DNA of 64,000 nucleotides, from assembly GCA_965227295.1 (NCBI GenBank), contig OZ245742.1, positions 5,056,001 to 5,120,000 on the forward strand, given 5' to 3'. The number at the start of each line of letters is the position of its first letter. Within the stretch, counting starts at the first letter, position 1. The position numbers and the translations under genes were made by a program. This DNA is from Leptonemataceae bacterium (GTDB taxonomy: Bacteria; Spirochaetota; Leptospiria; Leptospirales; Leptonemataceae). This document shows positions 6,516-37,400 of this stretch, in pieces. The notes under the pieces are model-generated. The model did no database searches. It was given only the letters and a program-made list of their open reading frames with translations, and had not been told where the DNA came from.

Positions 6516-6552
6516 GGCGTTGTTCCTGAATGTTTGCAGCGTGGATCGCTGA

Positions 6553-7184: not shown

Positions 7185-7719
7185 GATAAAAACTAAAAGA
7201 AACTTCAGCTCCGTCTAATTTCTTAAACCAGGGAAGTAAATTTTTCATGTCACTGAGAAAGTAGGCAATAAACTGAAATTCTTCCTGCTGTACGATATCG
7301 CTTATGCTATCAGGACTAGAAGAATCGAACACAGTCGGCCCCGTGCCCGTCCCGAGAACGTAATGACCTACGCGCTCCGAGTCTATAATCAGTTCAATTC
7401 CGCTTACTCCACTTTGCTGAACATTCCATATCGCCACTAAGAATTCGGCGTAAGTTACATTACCTTCAGTCTGAATGGTCAAAGTATCCACTTGGGATTC
7501 TATGAGCACGTCTCGAAGATTTTGGTCCCAAAAGTTGCCTTCCCACTTTTTTACATCCCTGAAACTCGGGTGCTTCTCGACTTTGACCTTTTCTCCATTT
7601 AGCTTCAGGCCATCCCGACTCACACTTAACACCGCACGCCCTTCAACGTCCGGCTGACAAGACTGGGAGAAAACCAGAAGTGTCGCCAACATGATTAAAG
7701 AGACATATCTCAAGCTCAT
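7174..7719 (-). CDS. Lipoprotein with an ExbD/TolR-like segment; putative immunity protein for the upstream peptidase toxin
   Basis: Lipobox SQSC; LTIQTEGNVTYAEFLVAIWNVQQSGVSGI; 4-nt ATGA overlap with the toxin stop; AT-rich like the toxin tip. Confidence 0.6.
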   Translation of the reverse strand: MSLRYVSLIMLATLLVFSQSCQPDVEGRAVLSVSRDGLKLNGEKVKVEKHPSFRDVKKWEGNFWDQNLRDVLIESQVDTLTIQTEGNVTYAEFLVAIWNVQQSGVSGIELIIDSERVGHYVLGTGTGPTVFDSSSPDSISDIVQQEEFQFIAYFLSDMKNLLPWFKKLDGAEVSFSFYLAQ

Positions 7720-13412: not shown

Positions 13413-13699
13413 GACACTATCCCGGTCGGCGTCGGTCGGTCTCGTTCCATCCGCTAAAAACCGGTACGAATGAATGCGTCTTAACCTGCGGCGCCGTAAA
13501 CTTATGGCTCATCAACTTTGACTACATGTGAAAATTGAGCCAGTATGTACTCCAGCAGACGACAAGAGCTCCAGAAAGTCGAATCCTTTTCAATTGAGGC
13601 AGCCTGGACGAATGGTCAAGCGCCTCCTGGCAGCCCTTACAATGATTTCCGGAGACCGGTGCCGCATGCTCGAATGTACATAAGTTAGACAGATCCCGC

Positions 13700-14338
13700 C
13701 TAGAAGACGCGGCGTTCATCCTTTACCTTTGCGCGATCCAGGCGCGCCTCGCTTTCCAGGAAGTTCAGACTGTCCGTCGCCGACCCCAGAATGGCGCGAA
13801 CGGCGGCAACCAGGTTCCCGGACTCTGTCTCAACGACCAGGGCTCCGTAACAGCCCCAGAGGTCGTAGCGGGCCGGATTTAGATCGGAGTTGAGCCTGAG
13901 GATTCTGACACCCTCTATGCACCGGCCGATGTATGCACGCAATGGATCGGCCAGAAACTCCGGATGCTCGCGCGCTGTTACGACGACCGGGCCGCTGATC
14001 ATGGATTCTTTCTGGAGGGTCGCCAGCATGCCTTCATCCAATTCGGATGCATAAACTGTGTCGACGTTCATATCCCCAAGAAATCCGATACGGCGGCCGT
14101 CATCCAATATTAGAAGCCCGATTCCGCCCCCGATCCCGATGAACTCGTCCGGTCGCTTGCCGCGAGCACCGTCCTGAAAGTTACGGAGGACTTCCGGCAG
14201 TTGTGCCGCGGAGGCGCTCCGCATCAATGCGCGACCAAAGTCAACGATCCTGCAACCACGCAAGGTTGTGAGCAATTCGTTCGCGTGATCGAGGCGCGAC
14301 CAGCCTAATTCTTGCCAGCGAGTCGAGAGCCTGGGCAT
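13700..14338 (-). CDS. Putative immunity protein (family shared with 41308 and 62971)
   Basis: Starts 6 nt after the toxin 2 stop; motifs LRGCRIVDFGR, GGGIGLLILDDG, AREHPEF...YIGRCIEGVRIL shared with the two paralogs. Confidence 0.75.
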   Translation of the reverse strand: MPRLSTRWQELGWSRLDHANELLTTLRGCRIVDFGRALMRSASAAQLPEVLRNFQDGARGKRPDEFIGIGGGIGLLILDDGRRIGFLGDMNVDTVYASELDEGMLATLQKESMISGPVVVTAREHPEFLADPLRAYIGRCIEGVRILRLNSDLNPARYDLWGCYGALVVETESGNLVAAVRAILGSATDSLNFLESEARLDRAKVKDERRVF

Positions 14339-14343
14339 AGGAA

Positions 14344-17300
14344 TTAACCGGAAAGCGCCTCAATCCATTCGTCGATTAGTTCTAGATTATCCGTCGGCTT
14401 AAAATCCTCGGGCAGCCGTACCACGGCTTTCTTTTCCGCGTTCAGCAACGGATCCATAACATAGAAAACGCCGGTCTCCGGATCAATCATACCCTGCAGA
14501 TCGTTGATATAATAATCTTCAGAAAACTTGCGCAACTGTTTGAACTGGCCGATCAACCCTTCGACTTTTTCTCTGCCGCCCGGTTTGCTCAGGAGCTGTT
14601 TTCTGTAGCGCTCCAGGCGTTCCACGAAATTCGGACCTGTACTTTTCGAGTGCAACTCAAGCCCGAAAGCCGGGTCCTTCGGAATATGCTTCATCAGGTA
14701 GCCCTCTGTTTTTGTGCCGCCAGGCGCCGTCATCTTTCCGGTCGCAGAATGAGGAATGACCCGAACTCCGTAATCCTTCATTTGCTTCAAACCGACAACC
14801 TCGTCTCTGACAAACGAAAGGCTTGCCTGATTTTTGGCAAAGCCTACGGCAATTTCACTATCGTTCCTGGTTGCATGAACGGTCTTGAAATCACCGTGCC
14901 CGATCGGCTCAGGATCTACGGTGATATTCTGGCCCCTTAAGGCCGTGAGCCGGGAATGAAAATCCTTCCAGGCTTCTTCCGCAACCTGATTGGCACGCCT
15001 GACCCCGGCCAACTCGCCCGGGGTCAGGTGCGCGGTGTAAGAATCAAAACCGGAATCATGCCCGTCTACTTGCCTGCGCTTCTTTATCTCTGCTTCCCGG
15101 AGACGCGCCTTTTCCGCCGCATCAAGCCGGGATCGACGCAGCGAAGATGTAACGTCCACGTCCGCGCGACGCGCGATGCGCAGAGCGAGCTCATCAAATC
15201 CGAAGACCGCCGCGACAGGCAGAGCACTGAAAGCGACTTCCGAAGCCACGATTGCGCCAGCCTTAAGATGGTTGCCTTGCTTCCATTCGCGTACAACTTC
15301 GAAAAAGGCTTGTACCTGACTTGTGCCCGGTAAAACGCTGAGAGCAAGATTATCTATGAACGCCGCTCCTTGCTCGGTCAGAGAATACGCGTAGATTGCG
15401 TCCAGGTTGGGCGGGGGGCCCAGGCTTTGCCGTATCGCATCGATCGCTCCTTTCAATTGATGAACGGTTTCTATACTGAAATCACGTTCGATCTGATCGT
15501 ACGCCGCGTTCAACGTCTTCAGTGTCGTCTGAAGCAACGTCCTGGTTTTGTTCTCCTCGGTAAGAGGCTCTTGCAGATAGTTTCGATAGTCTCCAGTTCC
15601 TTGCCATTTGCGGATTACTTCCACCGGATCATGGCAGGCAGCGGCATCGCAATAGTGGTACTGATTCGCCCAGGGAAGTCGGCTTTCGGTCGGCCGCTCC
15701 TGGAGTCCGAGGGCGGCAATGGCCCTTGCGAGGGCGACAGGATTCTCGGCGATTTTCTCCGGGTCGCGTTCTTTGTTACGAATGGTTCCCTCTTGAATCA
15801 GGGCTTCGTCTTCCTGTCGGGCCTGCCGCTCTTCCTCGGGCGTGAGTTTTGTGATAATCGGTTGAACACGATTGCCGGCGGCGTCCAGGAAACGCGTCTC
15901 GTAACCACCTCCCGAAAAAATGGATTGATAAGTCTTTTCTTCGACGATTCCGTCGGGACGAATATAAATCCTTACAGTTTCCCCTTCCGAATTTGTCCTT
16001 TCGTAGTAGCCGCCTTCCTTCGCCCACTTTTGCCCGAAGAGAAACAGAGGGTCATTTTTGCGCAATGCGGCGGCGGTATTCTGATCGAAGCCGCGTGCCT
16101 CGCCCCGGGGACCGGCGAAACCGCGCAACAAAGCGCGCTGTCCTTCGGCGTCCCAATATTTTTCCTGAAGATATTCGCGATAATCGGATCCGCCTTCCGG
16201 CGCGCGCCAGATCTCCTGACGAAGCAGACCTGTTTCCTCGTAGGTGAAACGCATTTTGCGTCCGTCCCATAGTTCGCCCTCGTAGTAGTAATGGTTCCGC
16301 GCTTCGTCCCGGTGTGCGGTGAACAGAACTTGCTGACCGTCCACGTTGAATGTCCGCACCGCTTTTTTGTATTGAATATCGGACTTATCGAAGGGAGCGG
16401 CCGCGGTCATCCCATCGCCAGGTCCGCCGCGTTCATTGATGACGATGCCTTCGCCGCCTCGCGCCTTCACTTCTTTCACCAGCACGACGCGATGTAAGTC
16501 TTCCTTCTCGATGGTGATGCGTTTGCCACCCGGCATCGCCAGACGAATCATCACTTGATCTTGACCTTCGATCGCGCCGTAATGGACCGTCCCGTCCTTC
16601 ATACGAACGACCACCGGGACGTCGCGATCATAGCCCCGCAGGCGATCGATTTGATACCTCAGATCGTCGTGCTGCTTCTCTTCCATGGCCGCACGTTCGG
16701 CGAGCAGCGCCTTGCGCGCCTTCAGGTCCGACGGGTCGCGGCGATCCCAACGCTGCTGCCATTCCTGACGCTGCTCCAGATAGTCCGCGCTGACTTCGGC
16801 CACGGTCTTCTCAATGCGATCGCGCGGATCATTTTCGTCAAGTTCCACGTCTTCGTTCGCCGCGACGTTCGCCGCGTGCTTGCTTAACATGGACTCAGCA
16901 GAACTTTGCAATTGGTCGTCCGCGCGTTTCGTTTCGTACGTCACGTTCCAGCGCAGGACATCACCGGCGTCGAAGCAGATGTTCTTGTTCTTCGCACAGA
17001 TCGTTTTATCACCCTGCCATTCGATTTCCGCCGCCAGGTTGTCCTCCGCGGAGAAGTCGTTCGGATACTGATTCAGCAGGAGCTTCGCGAAGTAGCCCTC
17101 GACCTTCTTCTGACGCCGCAGGTCTTCCGCGGACGGGAAGGCCGTGGTATTCGCGCGGAACGTACCTTTGAGCTCCCATTCCTCGAAGTCCGGCAACGTA
17201 TCTTCCATGGCGTCCGGCGGTGCGATGTAGACCTTCATGTCCGGAAGATCTTCGCTCCGTTCCGCCACGGCTTCGCCGGATCCCTGGCCGCCGCCGGCCG

Positions 17301-20300
17301 TCGGCTCTCCTTCGCCGCCGGGACCGATGGCGATGCCACCTTCTTCGCTTTCACCGTTTTCGTTGCCGTCGGGACGTTCGCCGTCCGGCCACTCTTCTCC
17401 GCCGGCGACTTCGCTTTCTTCTTCATCGCCGCCGAAGTTCTCTTCCCACCAATTGCTGAGATCTTCTCCGGCCGTATCGGCGGCGCCGCTCAGCACGGCC
17501 GCGACATCGTCGATCTGGCCCAGGGGCGTATCTTCGCCGAGGGGCGGGTCCTCGCCCCAGCGATCCGGGCTCGTGGCCCAGTCTTTTAAGTCTTCCAACT
17601 GATCTTCGATGCTGTCGAGGTACGGCGACGACAGGCCGTCCTGTTCGTTGTATTTGGCAAGATCGAAGCCGCCGCCACTGAGCGCGCCCGAAAAACCGTT
17701 CTCGGAATCGTAGCCGACGCCCAGGTCCAGGCCGCCGTAGCTGCCGGCGAACGAACCGTCCACCTGGTCGCCGTCGACGTCCACGTCGAAGCCGTTGCCC
17801 TGAACGTTGCCGGTGAATTGGCCTGCGGTGAAGTCGATCTCGCCGTCCACGCCGAAGCCCGAGCCGCCCAGGTCCGAGGCGTCCACGCCGAACTGCGACG
17901 CTAACTGATTCACATCGCCGGTTAAGCTCAGGCCGCCCGGGCCGTAGCCGGCGTCGAGGCCGTAGCCCGAGGCATCCACGGAAAAGCCGCTGTTCGAATT
18001 CCAGCCGGCGTCGACGTCGACGCCCCCGAAAGAAATCGTATTCAGATCGATGCCGAGGCCGCCTGCCTCGCTGTAATTTAAGTTTCCGTACTCGGAACTT
18101 AAGCCGGTCGTCAGTCCCTCGCCGGAGGTGTAGCCGATGGTGCCGTCAAAGTCATCGCCGAGGAAAGACGTGTCCACTCCCGCGGACTCCGCCAGCTCGC
18201 CGACGTCGGCGTTCAGGCCCCAGTCACCGTTGTTGTAGTTCGCCTCGACGCCGTACCCGGAGAAGCCCGCCGTCAGTCCGCCGTCGCCGTAGTTGAGTTC
18301 CAGGGCGGCAGAGTCGTCGTCGCCCCAGGAGTACGAGGCACCGAAACCGTCCTCTTCGTTATAACTTAAGTCCAGGCCGCCGTTGGTATAACCCGCCGAG
18401 AAACCGTCATTCTCGCTGTAGTTTAAGTTGAGTCCTTCGTCATCGTCACCGAGTTTCAGGCCGGCGGATAGCCCTTCGTTCTCGGAATAGTTGATGCCAA
18501 GGCTGCCGAAATCATGGCCGTAGCCGACCGAAGCCCCAAAGCCGTCCTGGGTATTGTAGCTCACGCCCGCCTTGAAGCCGCCGTAACCGAGACCCGCGGA
18601 CACACCTGTCCCCCCGTGCTCCGAATGACTGACCGTCACTGTGGCCGGACCGTAGCCCACGCCGACGGAACCGCCGAAGCCGTTGTCCGGTGAATACGAC
18701 AGGCCCACGCTCACGGCGCCGCCGGTAGCCATCTGCACGAAGCCGTTGGCAATGCCGCCCACGGCACCGACCAGCGCGCCCTGCAAACCGCCGCCGTTGT
18801 TGACGCTCTGGTACGCACCGGCGACGGCGCCGGCGACGGCCAGTGATGCACCGGCGGTGAACGGGGCGGCAATGGCGCCGACTACCATGATGGCGCCGCT
18901 GACCACGGCCTGTTGTTTGGCCTTCTTCGCGGCTTTCTTCGCCTTCTGTTGTTGCGAGAACATCGACGTGGTGCCCGGCGGCAAACCCAACGCCGTATCG
19001 ATGGCCGACATGACCTGGCCTTCAATGTAACTGCCCACGGCCTCGTGGGGCTTCGCGCCGCCGAGGATCGCGCTGATGATCGACGGCGGAATGCCCGTCG
19101 CCTCGCCGATGATCTGCCCTGCCCGGGAACGCATCTCACTGGCCAGGGCCTGACCGAAACTCGCACCACCGAGCATGGCCTTCGCCAGCGACTCGACCAG
19201 TTGCGCCTGCTCTACATGGAACGAAACATTTTGTTGAAAGGTCTTTTCGTTTTCGCGGGCGAGTTTGTTCGCGTCATCGATCTGCTGCTTTGCAGATTGC
19301 AGCTTGTCGCCCAGGCTTTGATTGTACTCGTTGAAGGATTCGCTGAAGTCGCCGCCAAGACCGCCGAGATCCCAGGCATCGAAGACGTCGCCGCCGGAAA
19401 GCAGTTCCATGGCGTCCGGTGGGAGGATCGTTACGGTCTGGTCCTCCATCTCACGCTCGTAGGAATCGCTGTCCGTGGCGGCCCCGCCGGTGTAGTTCGC
19501 CTGGCCCGAGGCGATCTTGCGCTTCATGGTTACCGCGCCGGTCTTCGGGTCCACGACGACCTCGAAGCCCTCGTCCTTATGCTTCTTGCGTTCTTCGGCT
19601 AACTTTTTCTGAAGTTCAGTTTGCAGACGATCAAACTCGGCCTGATCAAAGGCCGTGTAGTACTTGAGTTCGCCGTCGACCTCGTCGTCCCGCAGTTGTG
19701 CCAGCTCGGCCAGGCGCTTTTCTTCTTCAAAGCGCTCGCGGTTCGTGAGAAAGGAAATCTCACCGTCCTGCCGGTTCGCAAGATCGGCCACGCGCTCGAT
19801 GGCGTTGTCCCGGGCATCCTTCGCGCGCTCGTGCATGGACCGGGCGTAGCTGAGATTCTTAACACCCGTGGTGGCCTGGTAGAAACTCTGAAGCAAGTTC
19901 TCCAGGGCCGTCGCATCCACGCCGCCGCCGGCACGGTTAAAGTCCGCGGAGATCGCATCGAGGCGGCGTTGCGCGTCCAGCATCTGCGCGCTCACCGCGC
20001 TCGCAGACAGACCCGACGTACCAAGCTGTCGTTCGATTCGATCCATGGCGCGAGCGGTACTTGCATCCAGTTGCTGCTGGAGATTTCGAATGTGTGTTTG
20101 CGCCGCAGCGGAGCCTTCGTTCTGCGCCTGCTCTTCCGCGCTGATCAGGGCCGCCCATTGCCCGCGCCCCTCGCGATAGACACGGTCCATCTGCGCGGCA
20201 TAGGCGTTGCGCCGGGCCAGGATCTCGTCCCGGCCGGCCTCGTACGCCGCCGTGGCCGAAGCGCGGATGCCCACGGCCTCGGTCTGAAAGTTCGCGTAGT

Positions 20301-21822
20301 TCTGTTCGTACGCGGCGACCTGGGCCTCCCAGTCCTGAATCGCCGGCAGCAGATTGTTGCGCCAGTCGAGGGTAATGGGCGTCAGCGTATCGACGTACGA
20401 TTGATGGGTGACTTCGTTCGCCGCGGCCGCCGCGTCGTACCAGTTACCGGTGACAGTGACGCGCATGCGCTGCTCGGCCCAGCCGTCGACACCGAAAGGC
20501 GCGTTGAAGTTCCACAGGCAGATCGGGACACCGCCGATGCCGCCGCAGCCCGCCGCATCGAAGGTGAACGCGCTGTTTCCGTGAGCACTAAAGCACTCCC
20601 CCGTACGCGCGGTTGCAATTTGAATGATGTTTACCGTGTAGTGTGCCGGCGTGCTGTCGGCGCAGATGTCCATGCCTCCGCCGTTGATCGAAACGAAGGT
20701 TTTGCCGTACATCGACGAAAGCTGATTCAACAAAGGTACGTTGTTGGCACCGCCGCTTTCCATATATAGAGCGACGGTATTCACGAGGGGATTCAGACGC
20801 CAGTCGAGGACGTGGTTGTTGCCGTTGACCCATTGGTCCACGGGAATGGTCCCCTGCTTGATGCTGTCGTAGTACGTGACCGTCGTTTCTTCGACGGCCT
20901 GCTTCGATTCCAGCTCCGTCGTCATGCTTAATGTGAGCGCGGAGAGTGGGACGTTGTTCGCCAGGTCCGCCTTGAGCTGATTGATGAACGCCTGGAAGTC
21001 GAGGCCGGACTGGTTCAACACGCCCGGTGAAGAATAAAACATGCCGTTGCCCGCGAGCAGGCTTTCCATATTCTGCACGGCCGCGTCGATGGCATCGCGT
21101 ACGGTTTTTTCGTAGGCCTCGATTTGAGCCAGGGACTGCGCAAACTCCGCCTCTTTGCCGTCCAGTTCGGAGAGCGTGCTGCGATAATCGTTTTCGAGGT
21201 TCTGCAATGCCTCGCCCAGGTCCGCGATGCCGGCGTTGGCCTGTTCCTGCATGCGGCGTTCCCATTCGGCGTAACCCTCGCTGGCGCTGCCCGATCCGGG
21301 CGTCGCTGTCGGCACGTTGTTCATGGCGTCGGCGGCGGCCGCTTCCCGCTGGCCGTCGGTCGCCGTAAGGTACGCTGAGCGTTCTTTAGCGACTTCGGCC
21401 AGGGCGGCCGACTCCCAATCGGCCCGGGCCTTCGCCTTCTGAATTTCCAGTTCTTTGCGTAAATAGTCCTGATACTCGGCCACGCTGTTGAAAGCGTCCG
21501 AATTGCTGACGCTCAGAACTTCGTTCTGGATGGTCGTGTCGACCTGGGCTTCCCAGGCCGCGGAGAGCGTGTAAAGGCCCGAGGCCATGACAGACTGCCA
21601 TTCGGCGGTGGTGGGAGCACCCCGGGCCAGCTCGACGTACGGAGCGAGGGAGTTGCTTTCGAATCCGGGGGTGCTGATATTCGGAACCGACACCGGACCG
21701 GCACTCAGACCACCGGTGGGCACGGCGGTGGTTACGGTAAAGGTTACGGTCGCCAGCCAGGTAACAAAGTTTCTTCGCCGACGCGTCCATCCGCCGGTAC
21801 GTGCTTCCCAGGATGTTTGCAT
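14344..21822 (-). CDS. Giant secreted polymorphic toxin 2 (TIGR04388-like, subfamily A) with C-terminal minimal kinase-like domain
   Basis: Likely start MQTSW at 21822 (GAGGGG RBS); closely parallels toxin 1 up to VAGGEE; C-terminus IGHGDFKTV...E...GYLMKHIP...NDLQGMIDPETGVFYVMDP. Confidence 0.8.
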   Translation of the reverse strand: MQTSWEARTGGWTRRRRNFVTWLATVTFTVTTAVPTGGLSAGPVSVPNISTPGFESNSLAPYVELARGAPTTAEWQSVMASGLYTLSAAWEAQVDTTIQNEVLSVSNSDAFNSVAEYQDYLRKELEIQKAKARADWESAALAEVAKERSAYLTATDGQREAAAADAMNNVPTATPGSGSASEGYAEWERRMQEQANAGIADLGEALQNLENDYRSTLSELDGKEAEFAQSLAQIEAYEKTVRDAIDAAVQNMESLLAGNGMFYSSPGVLNQSGLDFQAFINQLKADLANNVPLSALTLSMTTELESKQAVEETTVTYYDSIKQGTIPVDQWVNGNNHVLDWRLNPLVNTVALYMESGGANNVPLLNQLSSMYGKTFVSINGGGMDICADSTPAHYTVNIIQIATARTGECFSAHGNSAFTFDAAGCGGIGGVPICLWNFNAPFGVDGWAEQRMRVTVTGNWYDAAAAANEVTHQSYVDTLTPITLDWRNNLLPAIQDWEAQVAAYEQNYANFQTEAVGIRASATAAYEAGRDEILARRNAYAAQMDRVYREGRGQWAALISAEEQAQNEGSAAAQTHIRNLQQQLDASTARAMDRIERQLGTSGLSASAVSAQMLDAQRRLDAISADFNRAGGGVDATALENLLQSFYQATTGVKNLSYARSMHERAKDARDNAIERVADLANRQDGEISFLTNRERFEEEKRLAELAQLRDDEVDGELKYYTAFDQAEFDRLQTELQKKLAEERKKHKDEGFEVVVDPKTGAVTMKRKIASGQANYTGGAATDSDSYEREMEDQTVTILPPDAMELLSGGDVFDAWDLGGLGGDFSESFNEYNQSLGDKLQSAKQQIDDANKLARENEKTFQQNVSFHVEQAQLVESLAKAMLGGASFGQALASEMRSRAGQIIGEATGIPPSIISAILGGAKPHEAVGSYIEGQVMSAIDTALGLPPGTTSMFSQQQKAKKAAKKAKQQAVVSGAIMVVGAIAAPFTAGASLAVAGAVAGAYQSVNNGGGLQGALVGAVGGIANGFVQMATGGAVSVGLSYSPDNGFGGSVGVGYGPATVTVSHSEHGGTGVSAGLGYGGFKAGVSYNTQDGFGASVGYGHDFGSLGINYSENEGLSAGLKLGDDDEGLNLNYSENDGFSAGYTNGGLDLSYNEEDGFGASYSWGDDDSAALELNYGDGGLTAGFSGYGVEANYNNGDWGLNADVGELAESAGVDTSFLGDDFDGTIGYTSGEGLTTGLSSEYGNLNYSEAGGLGIDLNTISFGGVDVDAGWNSNSGFSVDASGYGLDAGYGPGGLSLTGDVNQLASQFGVDASDLGGSGFGVDGEIDFTAGQFTGNVQGNGFDVDVDGDQVDGSFAGSYGGLDLGVGYDSENGFSGALSGGGFDLAKYNEQDGLSSPYLDSIEDQLEDLKDWATSPDRWGEDPPLGEDTPLGQIDDVAAVLSGAADTAGEDLSNWWEENFGGDEEESEVAGGEEWPDGERPDGNENGESEEGGIAIGPGGEGEPTAGGGQGSGEAVAERSEDLPDMKVYIAPPDAMEDTLPDFEEWELKGTFRANTTAFPSAEDLRRQKKVEGYFAKLLLNQYPNDFSAEDNLAAEIEWQGDKTICAKNKNICFDAGDVLRWNVTYETKRADDQLQSSAESMLSKHAANVAANEDVELDENDPRDRIEKTVAEVSADYLEQRQEWQQRWDRRDPSDLKARKALLAERAAMEEKQHDDLRYQIDRLRGYDRDVPVVVRMKDGTVHYGAIEGQDQVMIRLAMPGGKRITIEKEDLHRVVLVKEVKARGGEGIVINERGGPGDGMTAAAPFDKSDIQYKKAVRTFNVDGQQVLFTAHRDEARNHYYYEGELWDGRKMRFTYEETGLLRQEIWRAPEGGSDYREYLQEKYWDAEGQRALLRGFAGPRGEARGFDQNTAAALRKNDPLFLFGQKWAKEGGYYERTNSEGETVRIYIRPDGIVEEKTYQSIFSGGGYETRFLDAAGNRVQPIITKLTPEEERQARQEDEALIQEGTIRNKERDPEKIAENPVALARAIAALGLQERPTESRLPWANQYHYCDAAACHDPVEVIRKWQGTGDYRNYLQEPLTEENKTRTLLQTTLKTLNAAYDQIERDFSIETVHQLKGAIDAIRQSLGPPPNLDAIYAYSLTEQGAAFIDNLALSVLPGTSQVQAFFEVVREWKQGNHLKAGAIVASEVAFSALPVAAVFGFDELALRIARRADVDVTSSLRRSRLDAAEKARLREAEIKKRRQVDGHDSGFDSYTAHLTPGELAGVRRANQVAEEAWKDFHSRLTALRGQNITVDPEPIGHGDFKTVHATRNDSEIAVGFAKNQASLSFVRDEVVGLKQMKDYGVRVIPHSATGKMTAPGGTKTEGYLMKHIPKDPAFGLELHSKSTGPNFVERLERYRKQLLSKPGGREKVEGLIGQFKQLRKFSEDYYINDLQGMIDPETGVFYVMDPLLNAEKKAVVRLPEDFKPTDNLELIDEWIEALSG

Positions 21823-22108
21823 TCGACTTCCCCTCTGCCGTTCATTCTTTGATGCCGCCGAAGCCGCATCAAAGAATACACCGAGCAAGAAGCAAAGAAA
21901 TAGCAACAACTACAAGGAGTCGACTCATTTTCCGAAAAAGCGCCGGATGGACGCACAGACTAACTTACGAAGAAATAAAGCTACCAAATCCTGAGTAATC
22001 CAATACCACAAATTGTGTAATTAACTACAGCATTCTGTGTAATCAACCGGAAGATAAAATTGCATCCGTTCCTTTGAACTGCGGAAATTAATTACTATAC
22101 GTCTTTTA

Positions 22109-22747: not shown

Positions 22748-22843
22748 GGCGCTAAGGATACAGCTACGGCGGCGGCGATCAAGCCGAATATCGTTTCAGG
22801 AAAGGCTTGACCACCAGGAAATTCCGGTTTGTGTTTCCAAATT

Positions 22844-23758
22844 ATGTCGAGACTCCGATCTTACTCTCGCCCGCGCATCATCGCCGTCCTTACATTCGCC
22901 GGCGTTTTGATTGCGACACTGTCCTTTACCGGTTTCGCGTCCATCGACGCGCAAGAAAGCGATGCCCCCACCCGTACTATGAATCCAGAAGCACAAAAAT
23001 ACAACAACCGCGGCCTGAACTACTTTTCCCGCAACGATTTCAAAAACGCCCTCAAAGAGTTTCGCAAGGCCGCGAAGGTCGATCCGCAAAACCCGGAGTA
23101 TCCGAACAACGCCGGCATTGCCGAGCTGAATCTGCGCCGCCCTGCCGACGCCCTGCAGTACTTCGAGACGGCCATCCAGTTAAACAAGGATCTGCCGCTG
23201 TATCATTACAATCGAGGACTCGCCCTCATGCAACTCAGTCGGCCGCGCCAGGCCGAGGAGGCGTTTCTGGCGGCCACCGCGCGCAATCCGGAGTACTTCG
23301 AGGCCTGGGTCTATCTCGGTCTCTTACAGTACAATGAACGCAAGTTTGCGAAGGCCGAGGAAGCCTGGCGCAAAGCGGCCGATCTGCGCGAGGACGCCGA
23401 GGTCACGAACAACCTGGGCATGGCTCTGCTGGAACAAAACAAAACCGAAGAAGCCGAGCAACGTTTCCGCGAGGCCATCTCCATCAACGCCTCGTATCCG
23501 CTTTCGTACTTCAACCTGGGCGTGCTGCTGCAACGCCGCAACAACTGGGCCGAAGCCGAAAAGCAGTACCGCCAGGCCGTCCGTCTCGATCCGAACAACT
23601 TCCAGCCGTACTACAACCTGGCCATCGTCCTGGAAAACCAGGAGAAGGCCGACGAGGCGATCCAGGCGCTAAAGACATATTTGCAGAAGTTACCGCCCCA
23701 GGCCGCCCAGCTCCGCGCGGATGCCGAGGCGCGTTTGAAGCGTTTGCAGAGTCAGTAG
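22844..23758 (+). CDS. Secreted TPR-repeat protein (paralog group A)
   Basis: Signal peptide ending IDA-Q; EYPNNAG, YHYNRGLAL, YFNLGVL, YYNLAIV. Confidence 0.9.
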   Translation: MSRLRSYSRPRIIAVLTFAGVLIATLSFTGFASIDAQESDAPTRTMNPEAQKYNNRGLNYFSRNDFKNALKEFRKAAKVDPQNPEYPNNAGIAELNLRRPADALQYFETAIQLNKDLPLYHYNRGLALMQLSRPRQAEEAFLAATARNPEYFEAWVYLGLLQYNERKFAKAEEAWRKAADLREDAEVTNNLGMALLEQNKTEEAEQRFREAISINASYPLSYFNLGVLLQRRNNWAEAEKQYRQAVRLDPNNFQPYYNLAIVLENQEKADEAIQALKTYLQKLPPQAAQLRADAEARLKRLQSQ

Positions 23759-23766
23759 GCGCGAAG

Positions 23767-23810
23767 GCACACCCGCTCCGCCCCGCGAATAGGGCGGGGC
23801 TCCGGGGTGC
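23767..23810. terminator. GC-rich hairpin after the TPR gene, at the array boundary (no U-tract)
   Basis: gctccgccc-cgcgaata-gggcggggc stem with outer gcac.ccc/ggggtgc pairing. Confidence 0.35.
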
Positions 23811-23829
23811 GGATTCGCTTGCTGGATTC

Positions 23830-26285
23830 TTACGAAGAAGACGCCGGGGACTTATGCTTTCCGCCGATGCGGAAAGCCGGCGGTTCAGAAATCTCGCTGA
23901 AGCGAGAATTCTGCCGGTGCGCCTTACCCCGTTCCCCGGCATGGCCTCCGTTCATCTGCTGGAACCAGCCGTGACCGTAAAAGGCTTAATGAACACTGGC
24001 CGCCACTTACTTCGCGATTCGGGGCGTAATCGAACAAATTAAACGTTTTCGCTAGCTCAAGAGCCGCGGTTCTGCGTTTGCCGTGAGATACACAAGGTAA
24101 GTTGCGCAATGGTGAAGGGATTGATTTGGCTACGGCTGAGCGGGAGTTGTGGTGTTTCGTTTTGTTAAGAATGCTGCCAGTGGGGAACCAACTGCCGCGG
24201 CCCCAACAAGTGGGGCCTTGCCGACACCGGACGTCGGTTTGCGACTCAGCGACTATAGCGTCTCCTGCAACGAAGACGCCGTTCCGGTGCGCGCCCCACA
24301 TATCCCCGGCATGACCTCCGACCGTAAGCTGGAACCAGCCGTGACCATAAAAGTCTTAATACAAACTGGCCTCAAATTACATCACGATTCGGGGCGTACT
24401 CGAATGAATAAAACGTTTCCGGTAGCTCAAGAGCTGTGGTTCGCGGCGTTAGTCGTGAGACACACAAGGTAAGCTGCGCAATTGTTAAGGGATTGATCTG
24501 GCTACAGCTGAGCGGGAGTTGTGGTATGTCGTTTTGTTAAGAATGCTGCGTTCGACCCGGACGCGGGTTGTGCGATTCAGCTACCATAGCGTTTTCTACG
24601 GCGAAGACGCCGGGGACTTATGCTTTCCGCCGATGCGGAAATCCGGCGGTTCAGAAATCTCGCTGAAGCGAGAATTCTGCCGGTGCGCCTTACCACGCTC
24701 CCCGGCACAACCTCCGTTCATCTGCTGGAACCAGCCGTAACCATAAAGGCCTTAATGTACACTGTCCGCAACTTACACCACGATTCGGGGCGTACTCGAA
24801 CGAATAAAACTTTCCGGTAGTTCAAGAGCTGCGGTTCGCAGCGGTTGCCGTGAGGAACGTGAAGTAAGTCGTAAAACGTTGGAGGGAATTTTTTGGCTAC
24901 GGCGAAGCGGGAGTTGTGGTTTTTCGTTTTGTTAAGAATACTGCGTTCGACCCGGACGTCGGTTTGTGACTCAGCTACCGGAGCGTTTGCTACGGCGAAG
25001 ACGCCGCTCCGGTGCGCCTTACCACATTCCCCGTCATGACCTCCGTGGTCGCCTGGAACCAGCCGTAACCATAAAGGCCTTAATCTAAACTGGCCTCAAC
25101 TTACGTCACGATCCGGGGCGTGTGCGAACTACCCGAGCGTTTCCGGCAGTTCAAGAGCTGTGGTTCGTTGCGTTTACCGTGAGACACACAAGGTAAGTTG
25201 CGCAAAGGTTAAGGGATTGATTTGCCTACAGCGAAGCGGGAGTTGTGGTGATTCGTTTTGTTAAGATTGTCCGCCTCGACCCGGACGCTGGTTGTGCGGT
25301 TCGGATATCGCAGCGTTTCTTGCGAAGAAGACGCCGGGGACTTATGCTTTCCGCCGATGCGGAAAGCCGGCGGTTCAGAAATCTCGCTGAAGCGAGAATT
25401 CTGCCGGTGCGCCTTACCACACTCCCCGGCACGACCTCCGTGGGAGGGGAACAACTGCCGCGGCCACGACAAGCGTGGCCTTGCCCCTGGAACCGGCCGT
25501 ACCCTTAAAAGCCTTAATACACACTGGCCGCCACTTACACCACGATTCGGGGCGTACTCGAACAAATTAAACGTTTCCGGTAGTTCAAGAGTCGCGGTTC
25601 GTAGCGGTTGCCGTGAGACACACAAGGTAAGCTGCGCAATTGTGAAGGGAATTTTTTGGCTACAGCTGAGCGGGAGTTGTGGTGATTCGTCTTGCTAAGA
25701 ATGCTGCGCTCGACCCGGACGCGGGTTGTGCGATTCAGCTACCATAGCGTTTCCCAGGACGAAGACGCCGGGGACTTATGCTTTCCGCCGATGCGGAAAG
25801 CCGGCGGTTCAGAAATCTCGCTGAAGCGAGAATTCTGCCGGTGCGCCTTACCACGCTCCCCGGCACAACCTCCGTTCATCTGCTGGAACCAGCTGTACCC
25901 ATAAAAGTACTAATCCAAACTGGCCTCAACTTACACCACGATCCGGGACGTACTCGAACGAATAAAACGTTTCCGGTAGTTTAAGCGCCACGGTTCGTAG
26001 CGGTTGCCGTGAGACACACAAGGTAAGTTGCGCAATTGTGAAGGGATTTTTTTGGCTACAGCTGAGCGGGAGTTGTGGATTTTCGTTTTGTTAAGATCGT
26101 CCGCATCGACCCGGACGCTGGTTGTGCGACTCAGCTATCGTAGCGTTTCTTAGGGCGAAGACGCCGGTCCGGTGCGCCTTACCACACTCCCCGGCATGAC
26201 CTCCGTTCATCTGCTGGAACCAGCTGTACCCAAAAAAAAAGCCTTAATCTAAACTGGCCTCAACTTACGTCACGATCCGGGACGT
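23830..26285. repeat. Non-coding tandem array of about 330-bp structured units (6 full plus 1 partial) with optional 67-bp and about 45-bp hairpin cassettes
   Basis: Anchor GAAGACGCCG at 23837, 24272, 24603, 24997, 25327, 25761, 26157 (periods 435, 331, 394, 330, 434, 396); conserved blocks CTGGAACC, GCGGGAGTTGTGG, GACCCGGACG; no ORF conserved across units. Confidence 0.95.
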
Positions 26286-26290
26286 TGCGG

Positions 26291-27259
26291 TTATTCCACC
26301 GCACCGCCGTGGATCTGGGCGTGAAACTTCTTCGCGATCTCCTGCGAGATTTCCTGTAAGAACGTGGCACGCTTCAGGGTATCGTCGTCGATCACGAAGT
26401 TCACCGCGCCGACGCGGCGGCCCTGGGGGTCAAAGATCTCCAGAAAAACGAGCGTGTTCTCTTCGACTTCCAGCAAGAGTCCGGTCTCCGTGCGACCGAT
26501 GGCGCCCTGAATAAAATAATCGAGGTCGCTCTTGCCGCTGATGCGCTCGATCTCCTGCGCGCTCAATCGGCGCGCGTCGGGTTTTACGATGCGTTCCGGG
26601 GCCCGGGTTTCGCCGGCGATGCCGCGCAGGCGGCGGGGCAGTAGATCGTACGTGGCGTCGTAGTCGCGGGGATCGTAGGCGTCGATGTAACCGTCCTCCG
26701 TAACACGAGAACGCCGCGCCGGACGGGCGTTCTCGACGACCGAATCGCTCACCTGCACAAGACCGGCGTCACCGGCGTAAGTGTTCTCGTCGTCACCGCC
26801 GCCCACGGGCGCCGTCTCTTCTTCGGCGGCCGGCTCCGCATCTTCTTCGAGCGAATCGACATCCTCCGGAGAATCGGAATCGTCCTGCATCTCTTCGCCG
26901 GACTCCTCCAGCATTTCGTCCGCTGCCTCGTCCGTCGCCGGCTCCGCGGACTCTTCGCTGTCCGGCACAAGCTTGCGCTCTTCCGGAGCGTCCTTATCCT
27001 CAAGGACCTCGTACTGGACCTCGCCGATCCGGTAGCCGCGTTCCATCAGCTCAAAGCCGAGCATGTCGGTGAAGTTCTTGCTCGAGAACGGGTTGAAACG
27101 CACGTCGCGGTTCTCAATGAAACCGATGCCCACGTTGGCCACCTCGTTGGATTGGGTCTTCACCACGCGCACTTCACTGCTCGAACACGCCGCAAACAGC
27201 GCGCAGCTCAGCATGACGAGGATGCCTTTTGCATTGTTCATCGTTTTCATAATCATCAC
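26291..27259 (-). CDS. Lipoprotein with a long acidic low-complexity insertion; third gene of the TolC operon
   Basis: Lipobox FAAC; VGIGFIENRD...FTDMLGFELMERGY; Glu/Asp-rich middle; DYFIQGAIG. Confidence 0.8.
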   Translation of the reverse strand: MMIMKTMNNAKGILVMLSCALFAACSSSEVRVVKTQSNEVANVGIGFIENRDVRFNPFSSKNFTDMLGFELMERGYRIGEVQYEVLEDKDAPEERKLVPDSEESAEPATDEAADEMLEESGEEMQDDSDSPEDVDSLEEDAEPAAEEETAPVGGGDDENTYAGDAGLVQVSDSVVENARPARRSRVTEDGYIDAYDPRDYDATYDLLPRRLRGIAGETRAPERIVKPDARRLSAQEIERISGKSDLDYFIQGAIGRTETGLLLEVEENTLVFLEIFDPQGRRVGAVNFVIDDDTLKRATFLQEISQEIAKKFHAQIHGGAVE

Positions 27260-31453: not shown

Positions 31454-34400
31454 TCAATCCTCATAGTCACCTCGTGCTTTGGCCCGGCGCCTGAGTTCAT
31501 CCGCCTCCTGGCGCAAGCGTTCTTCGCGAGGCTGCGGCGGTAGTTTCTTCCATTTGGCAAGGTCTTCATTCTTCTTAATGTATTCTTCGCGTTGCTTCTG
31601 TCGTACGAGTTCTCGTTCGCGTGCGACCTGCGCTTCGTGTCGGCGGCGGGCCTCCGCAATCGCCCTCGCCTCGTTGCGCTGCCGTAGGATTTCCGCTTCC
31701 CGGCGCAGGCGTTCCCCATACGAAGCCGGCGGATTTTGGGCCATTTGCTGCCGGGCGTAGGCCTTGTCCGCCGCGACCTGCCGCTCACGTTGTTCCCGGG
31801 CCGCCTGAATACGCGCGGCTTCCTGGGCTTCTTGCCGGTATTTTCTTTCGAGGTCGTCGGCCGTAGTCGCGCAACCGTAGCAATCCATCGTAATCGTATG
31901 TGAGTCCACGCGCTTAACGTTGTCGGTTCGGTCGTAATCGATCGCACCGAAATCCAGGTAATGCGTCGTGGACTCTTCCTTGTGCAGGTAACGAACGCCC
32001 GAGAGTGGCGGGCCGTTGGCAACGCGATTCAAGATGCCGCCGATCGAAGTGCGCCACTCGACTTCGTGTTTCACCCGCGAAGCAGTCGAATAGTCCGCTC
32101 GAATGGTTTTTTCCGTTCTGTCCGCGAGACCGAAAAGATCAAGGGTCCACCCGGTGATGGTTCCTTCCGACCCGACCCCGCCGAGCAGGCCCGCACCCAG
32201 GCCGTAGAAACTACCGGTCGGTCCACCTTCGAATTCGTGATTGCCCGTCGTAACGTTGTAGGCGTAATCCACCCGACCACCGAACGGCCCGCGAGACGCA
32301 CCAATGCCGCCGAATTGTTCGATCTCGGTCTGCCCTTCCGAATTGACATAGTAGCGCACACCGCCGGTCAGACCGCCGGCCCAGTTCGGGTTGATGTCGC
32401 CGTTCATGCCGGCGAGACCGTCAACTTCAATGCCGTTCCATACTGTCTTGCTGTACAGGGGAGCGATGCGCCAGTTCTCTTCTTGATTGAGGACCAGGTC
32501 CATGGGCGGCAGGAGACGATCAGGGGAATACAGATGTAGCAGATTCGAGTTCGGGGGAAGCAGCAACACCTGGCCGTCGGGCCCCTTCAAGGGTTCGCCG
32601 TCCGGGCCCACGATCGTCTCATAGAGCTGTCCGTCCTTCTCCACCAGAAATATGCCTTCCTTCTCACGCAGGCGTCTGCGTCGTTCCGCCTCGGCCCTGG
32701 TTCTCAGTACGTGATCGGTCTTGCGGATGGTCAGGGTGATGGGATTGCCCCTGTCTTCTTGAGGATAATTATGCACGAGCACGTCCACATCACTCACAAA
32801 GTATGTGTGCGTGTCTTCGACTTCGATGTTGTACACGACATCATCGCGCCACTCCCGGCTCACACTGGCAATCTCCGCGGCGCTGCTGCCCGTGGCGCTC
32901 GCCAGCATGGATCCGTCGACCGCCGAAGACGCACTGTAGGAAAGTTGCCCGGCCTGCAGTTCGCGCACTTCGGTCCAACCCCGGCCCGCGATGTAGAACG
33001 GATGATTGAACGTGGTCTCGATCACCGGGCCGCCGTCGTCGTAGGCGACCGTGTAGATGAGATTCGTTCGGTGCACGAAGGTCTCGGTCACGGTTTTGTA
33101 CGATACACGCTGCGTCTGCTCGTCCCAGCTTAAGACACGATCGCCGACACTTACGTCTTCGATCTTTTTGTACCACTTGCCGTCCAGTTGAAACGCGCCT
33201 TCGGCATTCGGAGCCGTGCGCACCAGGGTGCCCGCAACGAAACACGTGTTGTATACGAACTCACCGTTCTGCGTATCCAGCATGCCGTCGGCCGTGCTGT
33301 AGGTTCCGCCGATCCACTTCACGGCGTCGCCGATGGCTCCGGTGAACTTATCCCAGGTCGTCTCCCGGGACTCGCCGGAGTCCCCGCTCGCCAGAAGGTT
33401 CTTCGCGTAAGTCGCCGTATGCCAGAGCGACGGATCTTCCCGCAGCAACTCAGCCTGCTCCGGCGTCAGCTTGCCCTGATGTACCATGCGATCGATATAG
33501 CGATCCTGCGCAATGGCGCGGTTTTCCTTACTGTTCCGATCCCGGAGTCGATAGAACTCTTCCAGTTCTTCCTGAGTGGCCTCTTCGGGACGATTCAGGA
33601 ACTTGTCCTCCAGGAATGCCAGACGATCCGCCATGGCCTGTTCCTTTTCACTCTGCGTTTGAAAATCGAAATCCAGGCTGATGTCGTTCGAATGCCCGGA
33701 ATACTGGCCGTTCGCGTCGACGTTTACCGTGAGCGTATTGCCCGCCGAGTAGCTGTTCAGCCCGATGCCGTACTTATCTTCCTCGCCCACCGAGTTGATG
33801 AACTGCGCGCTCTTGCTGCCGTCGGAGTTCAACGTCAACCCGAGACCGGCCGTATGCGTGGCCGAAGCGCCTTCAACCTGTTTGCCGTCCCGATAGCGAT
33901 CCACCTTCGTTTTGTACGTAAGCTGCGCGCTGATGCTGTTGTTCCCGTCCGGCGAAAAGTTCGCGCTCATGCTGCCGCCGAAGCCGCTGTCCGTGTTGTA
34001 CGATGCGCTCAGCGATCCGCCGGTGTAGCCGCCGTCCGCGCCGAAATTCATGCTTGCGTTGAGACCGTAGCCGTCGTCGCTTTGCAGGCCCGCGTTGACG
34101 CTGGCGCCGGTATAGCCCTGGCCTTCTTGAAAGTTCAGACTGCCGCCGAGGCTGAGTCCCGGCACCGGCGCCCCCGCAATCGGGATGCTACCGCTGATCG
34201 AACCGCCGAAGCCGGTATCGGAATCGTACGAAAGATTCACGCTGACGCCGGCCTTCGACGTGTAATGGTTGATCACCGACGACACGCCCGAAGCCGCCGC
34301 GGCCTTCAAAATATCTTCGCTGCTGTCACCTTTTAGATAGCCCTTGTAACCCTGTTTCGCCGCCATGTAACCGGCGAACGCGGCCGTGCCCCAGCCGGTG

Positions 34401-37400
34401 CCCACCGCCGCGGCCCCGGCCACGGTCTCGCCGGCCTGCACGGCCATGGCGAGCTCCGGATTGTGATCGGCGTTGCGCCACACGTAGGTAGCGCCGCCGG
34501 TCGCGAAGTCTTCCGGCTTCGGCTGCGCCGCTTCCTTCGCGGCTAACTTCTTGTTTTTGTCGGCGATGGTCGTGCGCTTGAGGAAACCGGCGAGCCCCGG
34601 AATGCCCGTGGCCTCTTCCATCTTCTCGGCCATGAGTTCGTCGGTGTAGGATTGAAACGCGGCCTTCATGCTGTCGCCGCCGAAGTCGACCTTGCCGCCG
34701 GAGACCATACCGCTGATGAAACCCGCCGGCAGCCCCGTGGCCTTGACGATCCCCTGAGTTATGACGTTGTCCGTTTCGGTCTTGATGTAATCCTTGACGG
34801 CCTCCTGCGCGGTCATGCCGCCCATGATCGAAGTAAAGATGCCCGCCGGAAAACCGGTGACCTCGGCGACGTGCGCGGCGGCCTGATTCTGTACTTCCTG
34901 CGCGACGGCCTCCTGAAAAGAAATGCCGCCGGAGAACATGGCCGTTGCCAGGGACTGCAAGAGTGAGCCGAACTTCTTCTTGCGTTTCTTCGCGGCAATC
35001 TTATCGCCCACGTCTTTTTGGTACGCGTGGTAGTTGTCGACGGCAGTTTGATTGGCCGCCTCGAGCTGTTGCAGCACGCCTTCGAACTTCGCATCCAGCA
35101 GCGCCTGGTTTTCTTCGCGGTTCTTTTCGTGCTCGGCCAGGACCTCGTCGGTATCCCAAAAGTCGAAGATGCTGCCCGTGTCCACGAGCTTCGCGGGCGG
35201 CGGCGGTGCGATGTTCAGCGACTGATCCGCATACTCGGCCTCGTAGTCCTGTCTCGACAGACCACCGGTACCGGCGATCTGCCGCGCCTTGCCGCTGTAA
35301 ATGCTACGCGCGGCGTTGATCATCCCGTCGGCGCCGATCTCCGCCTGGAAGCCGTCGATGGAAATGTAGTCATCGCCTTCGACGCGGGATTGATTCTGCG
35401 AAAGCAAGTCAATGATGCGCTCGCTGTTCTGCCGGCGTTCTTCGATTACGCGATTGTTCAGTTCGGATTGCAAGCCCAGTTGCGCGATGCCGCGGCCGGC
35501 GTTTTCGAAACTCTTCGCCACGCCGGACAATAACGAAAAGTCCGGGACGTCGCTTTCGCGATTCAGCAGATCAACGGTTTTCTCCAGTTCCTGTCCGAAA
35601 CTGCCGCCGGCCGCCGCGGCAATTTCCAGGGCAGCGGCGTTCTTACCGGAGAGCGAGGCCGGTGCCGGCGCTTCGGCCTTGCCCTGGACCACGGCCTGCC
35701 ATTGCGTGCGACCGTCGCGGTACTCGTCCTGCATGCCGGCGTACCACTTGCTGCGTTGTTGAATGATTTCCGAGACGGCTTTGTCGTACGTGACCTGCGC
35801 CGCGGCCTGTTGGTGCGCGGCCTCCGCCTGCCACGCCGCGTAGTCCGCTTCGAAGACGGCGACCTGGGTTTCCCAGGTCTGGATCGCCGGCAGAATGTCA
35901 TCCAGCCAATGCGATACGACGGGATCCAAATCGTTAACGTACCCCTGCCAGATGTCAGCGTTATGCCGGGCGTTGGCGTCCTCCCACTGGTAGCTGAACG
36001 TGATCGTGAGCAGGCGTTCGAGAACATTGTACGTGATTTCACCTTCCGACTCGTGTTCGTTCAGACAGTCCTCACCGCCGCAGGACCAGGTGTAGTACGC
36101 GTACGTATGATCCACGATAAATGCCAGGTCGCCCATACTGGCATAGTGGGCATGACCGTGTTCCTCTCGAACCCCGGTGTTGCGGCAATAATCATCAATC
36201 GGCGCCTGTGGACTGCATCCGCCGATGCCGTAGTACGGGCCGTAGGTTTGGACCAGGCTGCCGACTCCGATGATGTCGGCGGACAGAATGCCCGTGATAT
36301 CGTGCTGCGGATTGCCGAGGGACGCCTGAAAGGAATCCGCGATGGCATTCAGCTCGGGAGCGCTCTGACCCGCGAGAAATCGAACCACCGCATTGACCGT
36401 ACCGGTCTGCTTCAGGACCGCGATGACCGCGTTCGTCGCGGCATTAATGCCGGCCGGCGTAATGCCGAGGACGTCCCGGGGAGCCGCAAGCCCTTTGTTG
36501 GGCGCTTCGGCGTCGTGCACCCCGGCCATTTCATACGGGTCCGCGGTTTTGCGCCAGTCGTCGAAAGATAACTGCAAGTAATTCGGTGTTGCGTCATCGT
36601 ACGCTTGATACGCTGCGGCCAGGTACGTGTTCAGCGCCGCATCCGTAGACATGTTCGTCGAGTAACTGTTCGTCCCCGTACTCTGATTCACCCAGTTCTG
36701 ATACTGCTGCTGCGCGTACGTGCGGCGCTGATCGAGGGCCGTGTACATCGTACTTGCGAGCACCGACAGCGGCTGGTCCTGGTCGAGGCCGTCGTTAAGT
36801 TGGTCGATGATGGCCTGCATGTCCGTCGCCGCCGCGGTGGGACTGCCGTAATCAATGGAGCAGTTGTTCTGGCCGTCGCAGTTCCACTGATAGAAGACGC
36901 CCGACGTATCCAGGTAATTCTGCATGAAGTCCGTCGCGGTGCGAATGCCTGCGCGCACCGTGTTTTCGTAGGCGTCGATCTGCGCCTGGATCGCCGCAAA
37001 CTCGGCTTCCCTCTCCGCGAGCGCGCCGTTCGCCGCGTCATACTGTCCCTGCAATTGCGCGAGCGCGGTCTGAAACTGATACATGCCGTCGGAGAACGTA
37101 GCCTGGAAATCCTGTTCCCAGGCCTGGTACTCGCGTTCGATGTCCTGGGCCGTCGTATCTTCCCGGTTCGCCTCCGCGCGCCCGGCCGCGACGCTATCCT
37201 CGGATTCCTCGGCCGCCGCGCGTTCCTTCTCTTCGCTGAGGTCCGTTAAGAACGCCACACGCTGCTGATCGATTTCCAGGTTGGCCGCGGCCTCCCACAC
37301 CGCGAACTGCGACTGCTTCTGCAATTGCAGCTCACCCCTTAAGTAATCACGATATTCAGCTACGGTGTTGAAGTGATCGGACTGCCCCACCGCGCCGACG

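Follow-up and report, generated by a model that had tools for sequence, protein, structure and literature searches.

A repeat family of probable REPIN/BIME kind, built from inverted arms, forms a 2.45-kb array beside a TolC operon in a Leptonemataceae bacterium

The window analysed here is a 64,000-nucleotide stretch of a Leptonemataceae genome. Next to a TolC operon, it carries the longest member of a genome-wide family of arrays made of ~330-nt units. The account that we hold to be probable places the family among non-coding, interspersed repeats of REPIN/BIME type, in which the arms of the unit diverged and the element spread, expanded and was shuffled by recombination. The original prediction had left two options for the array. 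The first, a tandem ncRNA or a 3′ tail of the TolC transcript processed into units, did not find support, and an oversized BIME/REP-like mosaic is now backed more strongly, since the unit consists of alternating inverted arms.

The array lies between convergent genes for a TPR protein and a lipoprotein. On recheck, the predicted anchors GAAGACGCC (n = 7, at 23837, 24272, 24603, 24997, 25327, 25761 and 26157), the periods between them (435/331/394/330/434/396) and the partial last unit proved exact. The array also fills the convergent gap as described and ends at about 26286, 5 nt from the stop codon of the lipoprotein gene. The anchor itself has to be read differently: GAAGACG had been taken as the start of a head-to-tail monomer, but is the centre of an inverted doublet. 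With the two arms called M1 and M2, the locus is laid out as follows.

22829..23758, plus strand: TPR-protein gene, left flank; its stop (23758) abuts the array
23760..23826, plus strand: module C, a GC-rich hairpin and optional plug-in (46 copies in the genome; fold z-scores below)
23837..26286, no strand: backbone array of seven M1 arms alternating with six M2 arms, their inverted homologues
23847..23912, plus strand: cassette A copy 1, two hairpins near the doublet centre (z −3.6/−4.6)
23914..24043, plus strand: M1 arm 1
24046..24268, minus strand: M2 arm 1 (minus-strand M1 homologue), split by cassette B at ~24179–24222
24271..24413, plus strand: M1 arm 2
24416..24600, minus strand: M2 arm 2, holding the genus-wide conserved ~70-nt core (X-arm model, 10.4 bits)
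24613..24678, plus strand: cassette A copy 2
24680..24809, plus strand: M1 arm 3
24811..24993, minus strand: M2 arm 3 (X-arm model minus-strand match, 12.0 bits)
24996..25136, plus strand: M1 arm 4
25140..25324, minus strand: M2 arm 4
25337..25402, plus strand: cassette A copy 3
25404..25571, plus strand: M1 arm 5, with cassette B at ~25441–25484
25574..25754, minus strand: M2 arm 5
25771..25836, plus strand: cassette A copy 4
25838..25967, plus strand: M1 arm 6
25970..26152, minus strand: M2 arm 6 (X-arm model minus-strand match, 18.8 bits)
26156..26286, plus strand: M1 arm 7, whose outer end is the commonest array end point genome-wide
26291..27259, minus strand: LIC10494-like lipoprotein gene, right flank, last of an OEP/TolC – Big_5 – lipoprotein run

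The copies within the array are diverged rather than clonal, as had been noted, with pairwise identities of 77–91%. This divergence argues against duplication by the assembler. In two public runs that belong to one study, contigs agree with both array flanks with zero differences, and these runs may be the array's own source sample. None of these contigs spans the array, so the number of units is not independently bridged. The absence of cas and transposase genes nearby was confirmed, as neither family occurs among the 32 proteins of the window, and the variable windows of the units are shared alleles and not unique spacers. A guide array of the CRISPR or omegaRNA type was rejected on the lack of cas in the window and of TnpB in three genomes (IscB aside). 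The unit holds no conserved ORF, in agreement with the original prediction, and a codon signature is likewise absent. For the coding test and other unit-level analyses, 68 of 81 full-length matches, those of 315–345 nt, were kept and 13, mostly cassette-bearing, were dropped. Stop codons occurred in all 68 units in every frame but one, and synonymous fractions were 0.23–0.33 against ~0.25 expected. Protein matches to the unit, among those listed, were short ORFs called inside other arrays.

Differences in unit length had been assigned to two optional cassettes. Both exist: cassette A (66 nt) has four copies in the array, and cassette B (~44 nt) has two, inserted at two different sites. A third module of the family, C, had been overlooked; it is a 67-nt hairpin just before the first anchor (23760–23826). 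Genome-wide, cassette A has 21 copies, 20 of them at the same unit site, and every copy of module C (46/46) is located within a backbone locus or next to one. The sole modules that fold clearly better than shuffled sequences are cassette A and module C (RNA fold z −2.1 on the plus and −3.6 on the minus strand). The fold of cassette B was not better than shuffles (z −1.0/−0.5).

A profile built from the seven array units gave 297 matches in 114 loci, which together cover 69.8 kb, a share of 1.2% in a genome of 5.94 Mb; a blastn version of the search gave 123 merged regions. The array beside the TolC operon is the longest of these loci (2.45 kb), followed by one of 1.95 kb. By gene context, 59 loci are convergent, 49 co-directional and 6 divergent, compared with 200/1302 convergent and 425/1302 divergent in a set of gaps longer than 150 bp. 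These contexts rest on uncurated, hexamer-based gene calls (4602 genes). The loci are extragenic, lie at gene 3′ ends and shun divergent gaps, as BIMEs do, and up to 17 genes end inside a repeat copy. Relative to replication, the orientation of the 114 loci is biased 71:43 (p = 0.011), a modest bias that reaches significance on one replichore (39/60, p = 0.027) and not on the other (32/54, p = 0.22). Polar words of the KOPS type were considered and rejected, since octamers of the unit are just mildly skewed (0.30–0.68). Scans of the unit for promoters (0 vs 1.0 expected) and terminators (5 vs 4.1 expected) gave no excess.

The array had been presented as a feature of the toxin/secretion locus that might co-occur with TIGR04388/TolC genes. 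This was not seen: the family is genome-wide, the site is empty in a congener, and just one TIGR04388-like gene out of 14 lies less than 3 kb from an array, compared with 13.6% of the 4602 called genes. The array on the TolC side is merely the largest expansion, without a specific link to TolC or TIGR04388 genes, and any effect of it on their transcripts is incidental.

The ends of arrays are concentrated at two positions in the unit, which divide it into M1 (consensus 1–145) and M2 (146–330). M1 and M2 alternate in most multi-module loci. Judged from sequence comparison, each ~330-nt unit consists of two homologous arms of ~140–185 nt in inverted orientation. By eye, M1 and reversed M2 have four collinear boxes in common. 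At the consensus level this similarity is marginal, being matched by 59, 80 and 186 of 3000 shuffles, by 815 of 2000 under lax scoring and by 0–40 of 150 in profile tests; the case for homology therefore rests on intermediates. At two short loci of this genome (776.3 kb and 1378.6 kb), a stretch designated X is recognised by both arm models, in forward orientation by that of M1 and in reverse by that of M2 (23.0 bits, E = 1e-6; 30.4 bits, E = 5.5e-9). A model of the X arm in turn finds 68/68 M1 forward and 56/68 M2 reversed, and 0/68 in each of the shuffled sets. A simple chimera was to be excluded by a model made from the inner part of six X arms. It scored above 0 bits on 63/68 inner M1 and 67/68 reversed inner M2, compared with 12 and 11 of 680 shuffles, although the scores on inner M1 are low (0/68 reach 6 bits). 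More intermediates lie at 675 kb, 1073 kb, 1423 kb, 4461 kb and 5640 kb, and M2–X doublets carry private alleles common to their two arms. Loci with just one or two modules hold versions that fit the family profile less well (0.77 bits per column) than the modules of long arrays do (0.98 bits per column). Within this genome, 127/330 columns are at least 97% conserved, and conservation peaks in the inner arms and not at the termini.

The X-type doublets fold as hairpins of 270–316 nt with z-scores from −3.5 to −8.9. As ssDNA, those of this genome reach z −8.3, −8.9/−7.4 and −3.5/−5.1, and the congener doublets −4.2 (G001) and −7.0 (G002). Two M2–M1 monomers gave no hairpin fold (z −0.5 and +0.6); the M2–M1 pair at 24811–25136 of the array has an ssDNA fold z of −1.9.

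The ~70-nt M2 core was found in both congeners (G001 and G002), with orthologues that are mostly 57–94% identical, and in 0 of 39 other genomes of the bacterial family. An order-wide search of 156 genomes added one weak match (G008, E = 0.007), which the arm models do not support. A pattern scan of 185,579 species genomes returned seven loci in two genome records. No pattern match was found in viral contigs or in metagenome contigs; a looser pattern gave two in the latter, neither supported by the arm models. In the congeners, the pattern search for M1 boxes did no better than reversed controls, and most element loci there (14/15) are single arms and not doublets. Copy number differs widely, with 257 M2 matches here and at least nine (G002) and at least six (G001) element loci in the congeners. 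In G002, the homologous lipoprotein and TPR genes are convergent, with a 24-nt gap and no array, and the TolC regions of both congeners contain no credible family match. In G001, an acyltransferase gene is flanked by gaps that fall short of those here by roughly the lengths of the arrays. For most of the other element sites in the congeners, the corresponding gene here lacks an array, and vice versa. Capture of genes between arrays was rejected for one sandwiched gene, which is a resident that is syntenic in both congeners.

One site is held in common. Behind a fliY-like flagellar switch gene, the element is present in all three species, as one inverted doublet of X-type and M2-type arms in each of G001 and G002 and as a two-unit modern array in this genome. 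Among fliY-like loci from other genera, 0/22 have a doublet. The doublet predates the species. Between the G001 and G002 doublets the middle segments of the arms are apparently exchanged, while inner and outer parts are unmoved, and in G002 a ~20-nt insert is common to both arms. The exchanged segments would reflect arm-to-arm recombination.

The arrays bear marks of local growth as well as of exchange across the genome. Identity is 85% within arrays versus 79% between them, and identical tracts reach 203 nt within arrays versus a maximum of 89 between. Linkage falls from an r2 of 0.38 at 1–2 nt to a background of 0.065 at 11–15 nt, and ~90% of site pairs more than 11 nt apart show all four gametes. 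For several units of this array, a distant copy is as similar as the neighbouring units or more so, for example at 92% over 309 nt. Array ends are ragged and permuted. A target-site duplication was not detected (mean shared flank word 4.61 vs 4.60) in a test that used HMM ends as approximate borders. Searches for RAYT (NF047646), Y1 (PF01797) and TnpB found none in three genomes of the genus (93% complete), with positive controls detected. None of 50 genes that adjoin arrays, lie between them or belong to multi-copy elements is of an HUH family, and small predicted proteins scanned with a simple HUH motif gave no match. The search for an IS91 Y2 transposase gave no match, and its control was silent too.

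Taken together, the probable REPIN/BIME-type history can be laid out in steps. Homology shows the ancestor to be a doublet of 270–316 nt with inverted arms of ~100–150 nt, M2 and X, whose boxes at fixed spacing pair into one long hairpin, and which lies behind gene ends across the genus. Along the series of intermediates, the X arm would then have drifted into M1 in this species with loss of pairing between the arms, and the small hairpin cassettes A, B and C may have been acquired. The modern doublet occupies more than 100 gene-end gaps, which are empty in the congeners wherever checked. The pattern of the arrays suggests tandem growth, possibly by local duplication or unequal exchange, and short-tract recombination with the genome-wide pool, probably at the conserved boxes. 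Most tentatively, new sites may have been seeded via ssDNA at the replication fork by an enzyme that has been lost or is not recognisable as a RAYT. The hairpin ancestry, the lack of target-site duplications and fixed ends and the replication orientation bias point to such ssDNA seeding. Points that weigh against the REPIN/BIME-type account are the failure to find RAYT, Y1 or TnpB in the genus genomes, arms that are not themselves short palindromes, the marginal consensus-level similarity of M1 and reversed M2, the low scores on inner M1, the predominance of single arms in the congeners and the modest strand bias.

A bolder version, which we consider possible but would not expect, is that these are RAYT-independent giant hairpin replicators. 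A doublet of ~300 nt with box-and-bubble arms would then be recognised by sequence by some enzyme, swap segments between its two arms and persist across the genus, and in one species it would have become a hairpin-free tandem form that is still spreading. This genome would in that case preserve the whole evolutionary path that leads from a mobile hairpin to a BIME-like array.

The conservation of the boxes speaks for a host function. Across three species the boxes are near-invariant and at fixed spacing while the spacers vary freely, as they are within the genome. This exceeds the expectation under pure drift, counts against a REPIN/BIME-type account and calls for sequence-specific recognition by something. 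The boxes might bind a chromosome-structuring or transcription-insulating protein, with the element placed between converging genes and amplified as a useful, host-domesticated cis-element. Its retention behind the fliY-like gene in all three species would fit, as would the tendency of arrays to be longer the farther they lie from the origin (rho 0.27, p = 0.003), and BIMEs bind IHF, Pol I and gyrase according to the sections of PMC3333891 considered here. However, copy number differs more than tenfold between congeners and most sites are without a counterpart across them, and we regard a host cis-element as unlikely to be the main explanation. It is compatible with the REPIN/BIME-type account and not exclusive of it.

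The placement of copies at transcript ends, their ragged and permuted array ends and the ten reverse transcriptase genes of the genome are features that speak for retro-copying. Here, copies of transcribed 3′ UTRs would be reinserted by reverse transcriptases of the group II intron type or retron-like ones, yielding permuted tandem products. We consider this very unlikely. The unit has no homology to the tested intron copies (best score 3.9 bits), no ribozyme or Rfam family was matched, and in co-directional contexts the copies have no preferred orientation relative to transcription (27 vs 22). The inverted-arm ancestry, moreover, points to hairpins of DNA.

Structured ncRNAs in tandem, or units processed from a long 3′ end of the TolC-operon transcript, would suit the conserved blocks, the short dyads and the abutment of the array on the lipoprotein stop, as well as the good folds of cassette A and module C. 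The dyads named in the original prediction are present; the backbone as a whole does not fold better than shuffled sequence. When 23 of the 68 units were folded as RNA, the median z-scores of the two strands were −0.18/+0.38, and 22 of 73 units taken in the other register and folded as ssDNA had −0.14/+0.01. The M1 arm (z −0.2/+0.3) and the congener cores (z −0.8 to +0.8) behaved alike. In the covariation check that had been proposed, alifold structures contained almost no compensatory changes, arm–arm pairing in array units equalled independence, mutual information was local throughout and linkage was lost within 10–15 nt. Rfam gave four chance matches on the array, far below the gathering scores, and one chance match on six doublet loci. 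The array family shows no sign of a folded RNA gene, and with the site empty in G002 and no enrichment near TIGR04388-like genes, the ncRNA explanation is highly improbable.

A classical tandem-forming MITE of a resident DDE transposase (IS481, IS5, IS3 or IS1595 type) is likewise hardly credible: the inverted arms and the multi-copy IS elements of the genome would agree with it, but the unit is unlike the ends of the resident IS elements, target-site duplications gave no signal, array ends are ragged and conservation is highest in the inner arms. An IS481 copy inserted into a unit is the sole strong IS match. The ends of IS1595-like elements share short words with the unit, and a check of this link found no HUH or Rep family among 28 proteins. 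IS256 was searched for and not found.

For the window, the result is deflationary, as the array tells nothing special about the TolC/TIGR04388 locus. In REPINs and BIMEs, the biology centres on short REP palindromes and on RAYT transposases; here, the same architecture and placement come with arms that are several times longer and with no detectable RAYT. The family is an outsized version of the REPIN/BIME kind in which the way from the hairpin doublet to the unfolded array can be followed, as intermediates connect the well-folded doublet to unfolded arrays of kilobase size. Two questions become testable, namely by what route BIME-like arrays originate and expand, and whether repeats of this sort can spread or persist without a RAYT.

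An earlier description of the family was not found in the open-access literature, and we compared it with known systems as these are described in the sections of the cited reports considered here. REPINs are REP doublets that form hairpins and are associated with RAYT transposases (PMC3116915; bioRxiv 10.1101/2021.07.10.451892), and dependence on RAYTs is their stated basis (bioRxiv 10.1101/2021.07.10.451892). The present family resembles them in the inverted doublet and the extragenic location (PMC3116915), in the single ssDNA or RNA hairpin for X-type doublets though not for array units, in singlets as probable remnants and higher-order tandem clusters, and in apparently vertical persistence across related species. 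It differs in size, with a doublet of 270–330 nt and arms of ~100–185 nt, whereas REP spacings in SBW25 are 71 and 110 bp (PMC3116915). The arrays reach 2.45 kb, whereas the largest REPIN cluster of SBW25 is given as ‘over 700 bp’ (PMC3116915). Unlike in REPINs, the arms are not short 20–40-nt palindromes with a GTAG/CGTC foot, the dominant form is hairpin-free and the three genomes (93% complete) contain no RAYT.

In E. coli, the REPs of BIMEs are described as 20–40-nt GTAG-tagged palindromes whose tandem copies at the same locus are well conserved, and a two-step model of diversification followed by local amplification has been proposed for BIMEs (PMC3333891). The same source has IS200/IS605 elements acting at the lagging-strand template. 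The family is like BIME-2 in that two inverted elements alternate in tandem with two kinds of junction, in its optional linker modules, its share of ~1% of the genome and its locus-variable number, and in a two-step course of diversification and then local amplification (PMC3333891). It differs from BIMEs as there described in arms that are several times longer and unstructured, in the lack of tnpA-REP and in units that are often as near to distant copies as to neighbours.

With the GTAG/CGTC REP superfamilies, the family shares heterodimers of inverted partners, a position a few bases from convergent 3′ ends and a stop codon that is sometimes supplied by the element (PMC3733652; up to 17 cases here). 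Unlike in that description, no stem of 5–13 bp with a terminal tag defines the unit (PMC3733652). GTAG and CGTC words are present in the boxes, by eye and in the consensus and alifold structures, and not at a conserved hairpin foot. With arms other than short tagged palindromes and without a RAYT in the genomes searched, the family is a member of neither the REPINs nor the BIMEs. By analogy with the three systems, it is best described as REPIN-like in its presumed working, BIME-2-like in arrangement and REP-dimer-like in placement.

In each of the two congeners of the genome that holds the window (G000), a doublet of two inverted arms is located behind a fliY-like gene:

Locus L139, 2640-2870: doublet behind the fliY-like gene of congener G001
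Locus L140, 2645-2960: doublet behind the fliY-like gene of congener G002

The outer and innermost parts of both doublets occupy the same place, whereas the middle segments, one of X type (related to both M1 and M2) and one of M2 type, are found on opposite arms. This opposite-arm placement, read from sequence, suggests a reciprocal exchange between the arms of one hairpin. A core belonging to one arm only, preceded by similar DNA in the two genomes, is also present in both congeners (L034 in G002, flanked by divergent genes, and L027 in G001), possibly an orthologous retained site.

Genome-wide in G000, array length was smaller close to the origin (rho 0.27, p=0.003). Most adjacent array loci less than 4 kb apart had the same orientation (in our own count, about 13 of 16). 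An insertion and an additional hairpin cassette were observed in M2 arms of G000:

L089, 4318-5470 (G000 1034815): IS481-type copy within an M2 arm
L086, 490-540, and L118 (G000 2188406, 4249510): hairpin cassette in the GCGGGAG box of M2

The former, one of six IS481-type copies, interrupts the conserved core box with a 6-bp duplication; the remaining five lie outside arrays. The latter is absent from the window. G000 also contains at least two other large groups of dispersed hairpin repeats, with examples near 4472379 and 4587554; their clusters comprise about 250 and 171 segments of intergenic DNA. Cassette B was also found away from arrays (10 of 38 copies in G000), apparently within repeats of this kind.

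G000 contains 14 TIGR04388-family genes. Two of the four giant proteins of this family in the window carry pretoxin HINT domains:

Window 7716-21909, 31454-37699 and 41948-49828: four TIGR04388-family giant proteins

Two near-identical duplications in G000 reflect either genuine segmental copying or overlap in the assembly:

G000 1-8430 and 5915634-5924064: duplication of 8.4 kb
G000 750433 and 5014969: duplication of 11.9 kb

Other loci observed in G000 involve a reverse transcriptase (RT):

L076, L171 and L172 (G000 about 8-35 kb, 4.55 Mb, 5.03 Mb and 5.91 Mb): IS1595/ISXO2-like elements
L082, 731-2305 (G000 3068-3070 kb): retron-like RT of 338 aa with a short ORF after it

The IS1595/ISXO2-like elements have palindromic ends containing long 13-nt tandem repeats, and metal-resistance genes are found nearby. 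One RT-bearing, group II intron-like element is present in three copies at the same site within them. The retron-like RT and its short ORF, which by eye looks like a trypsin-type protease, are unrelated to the arrays.
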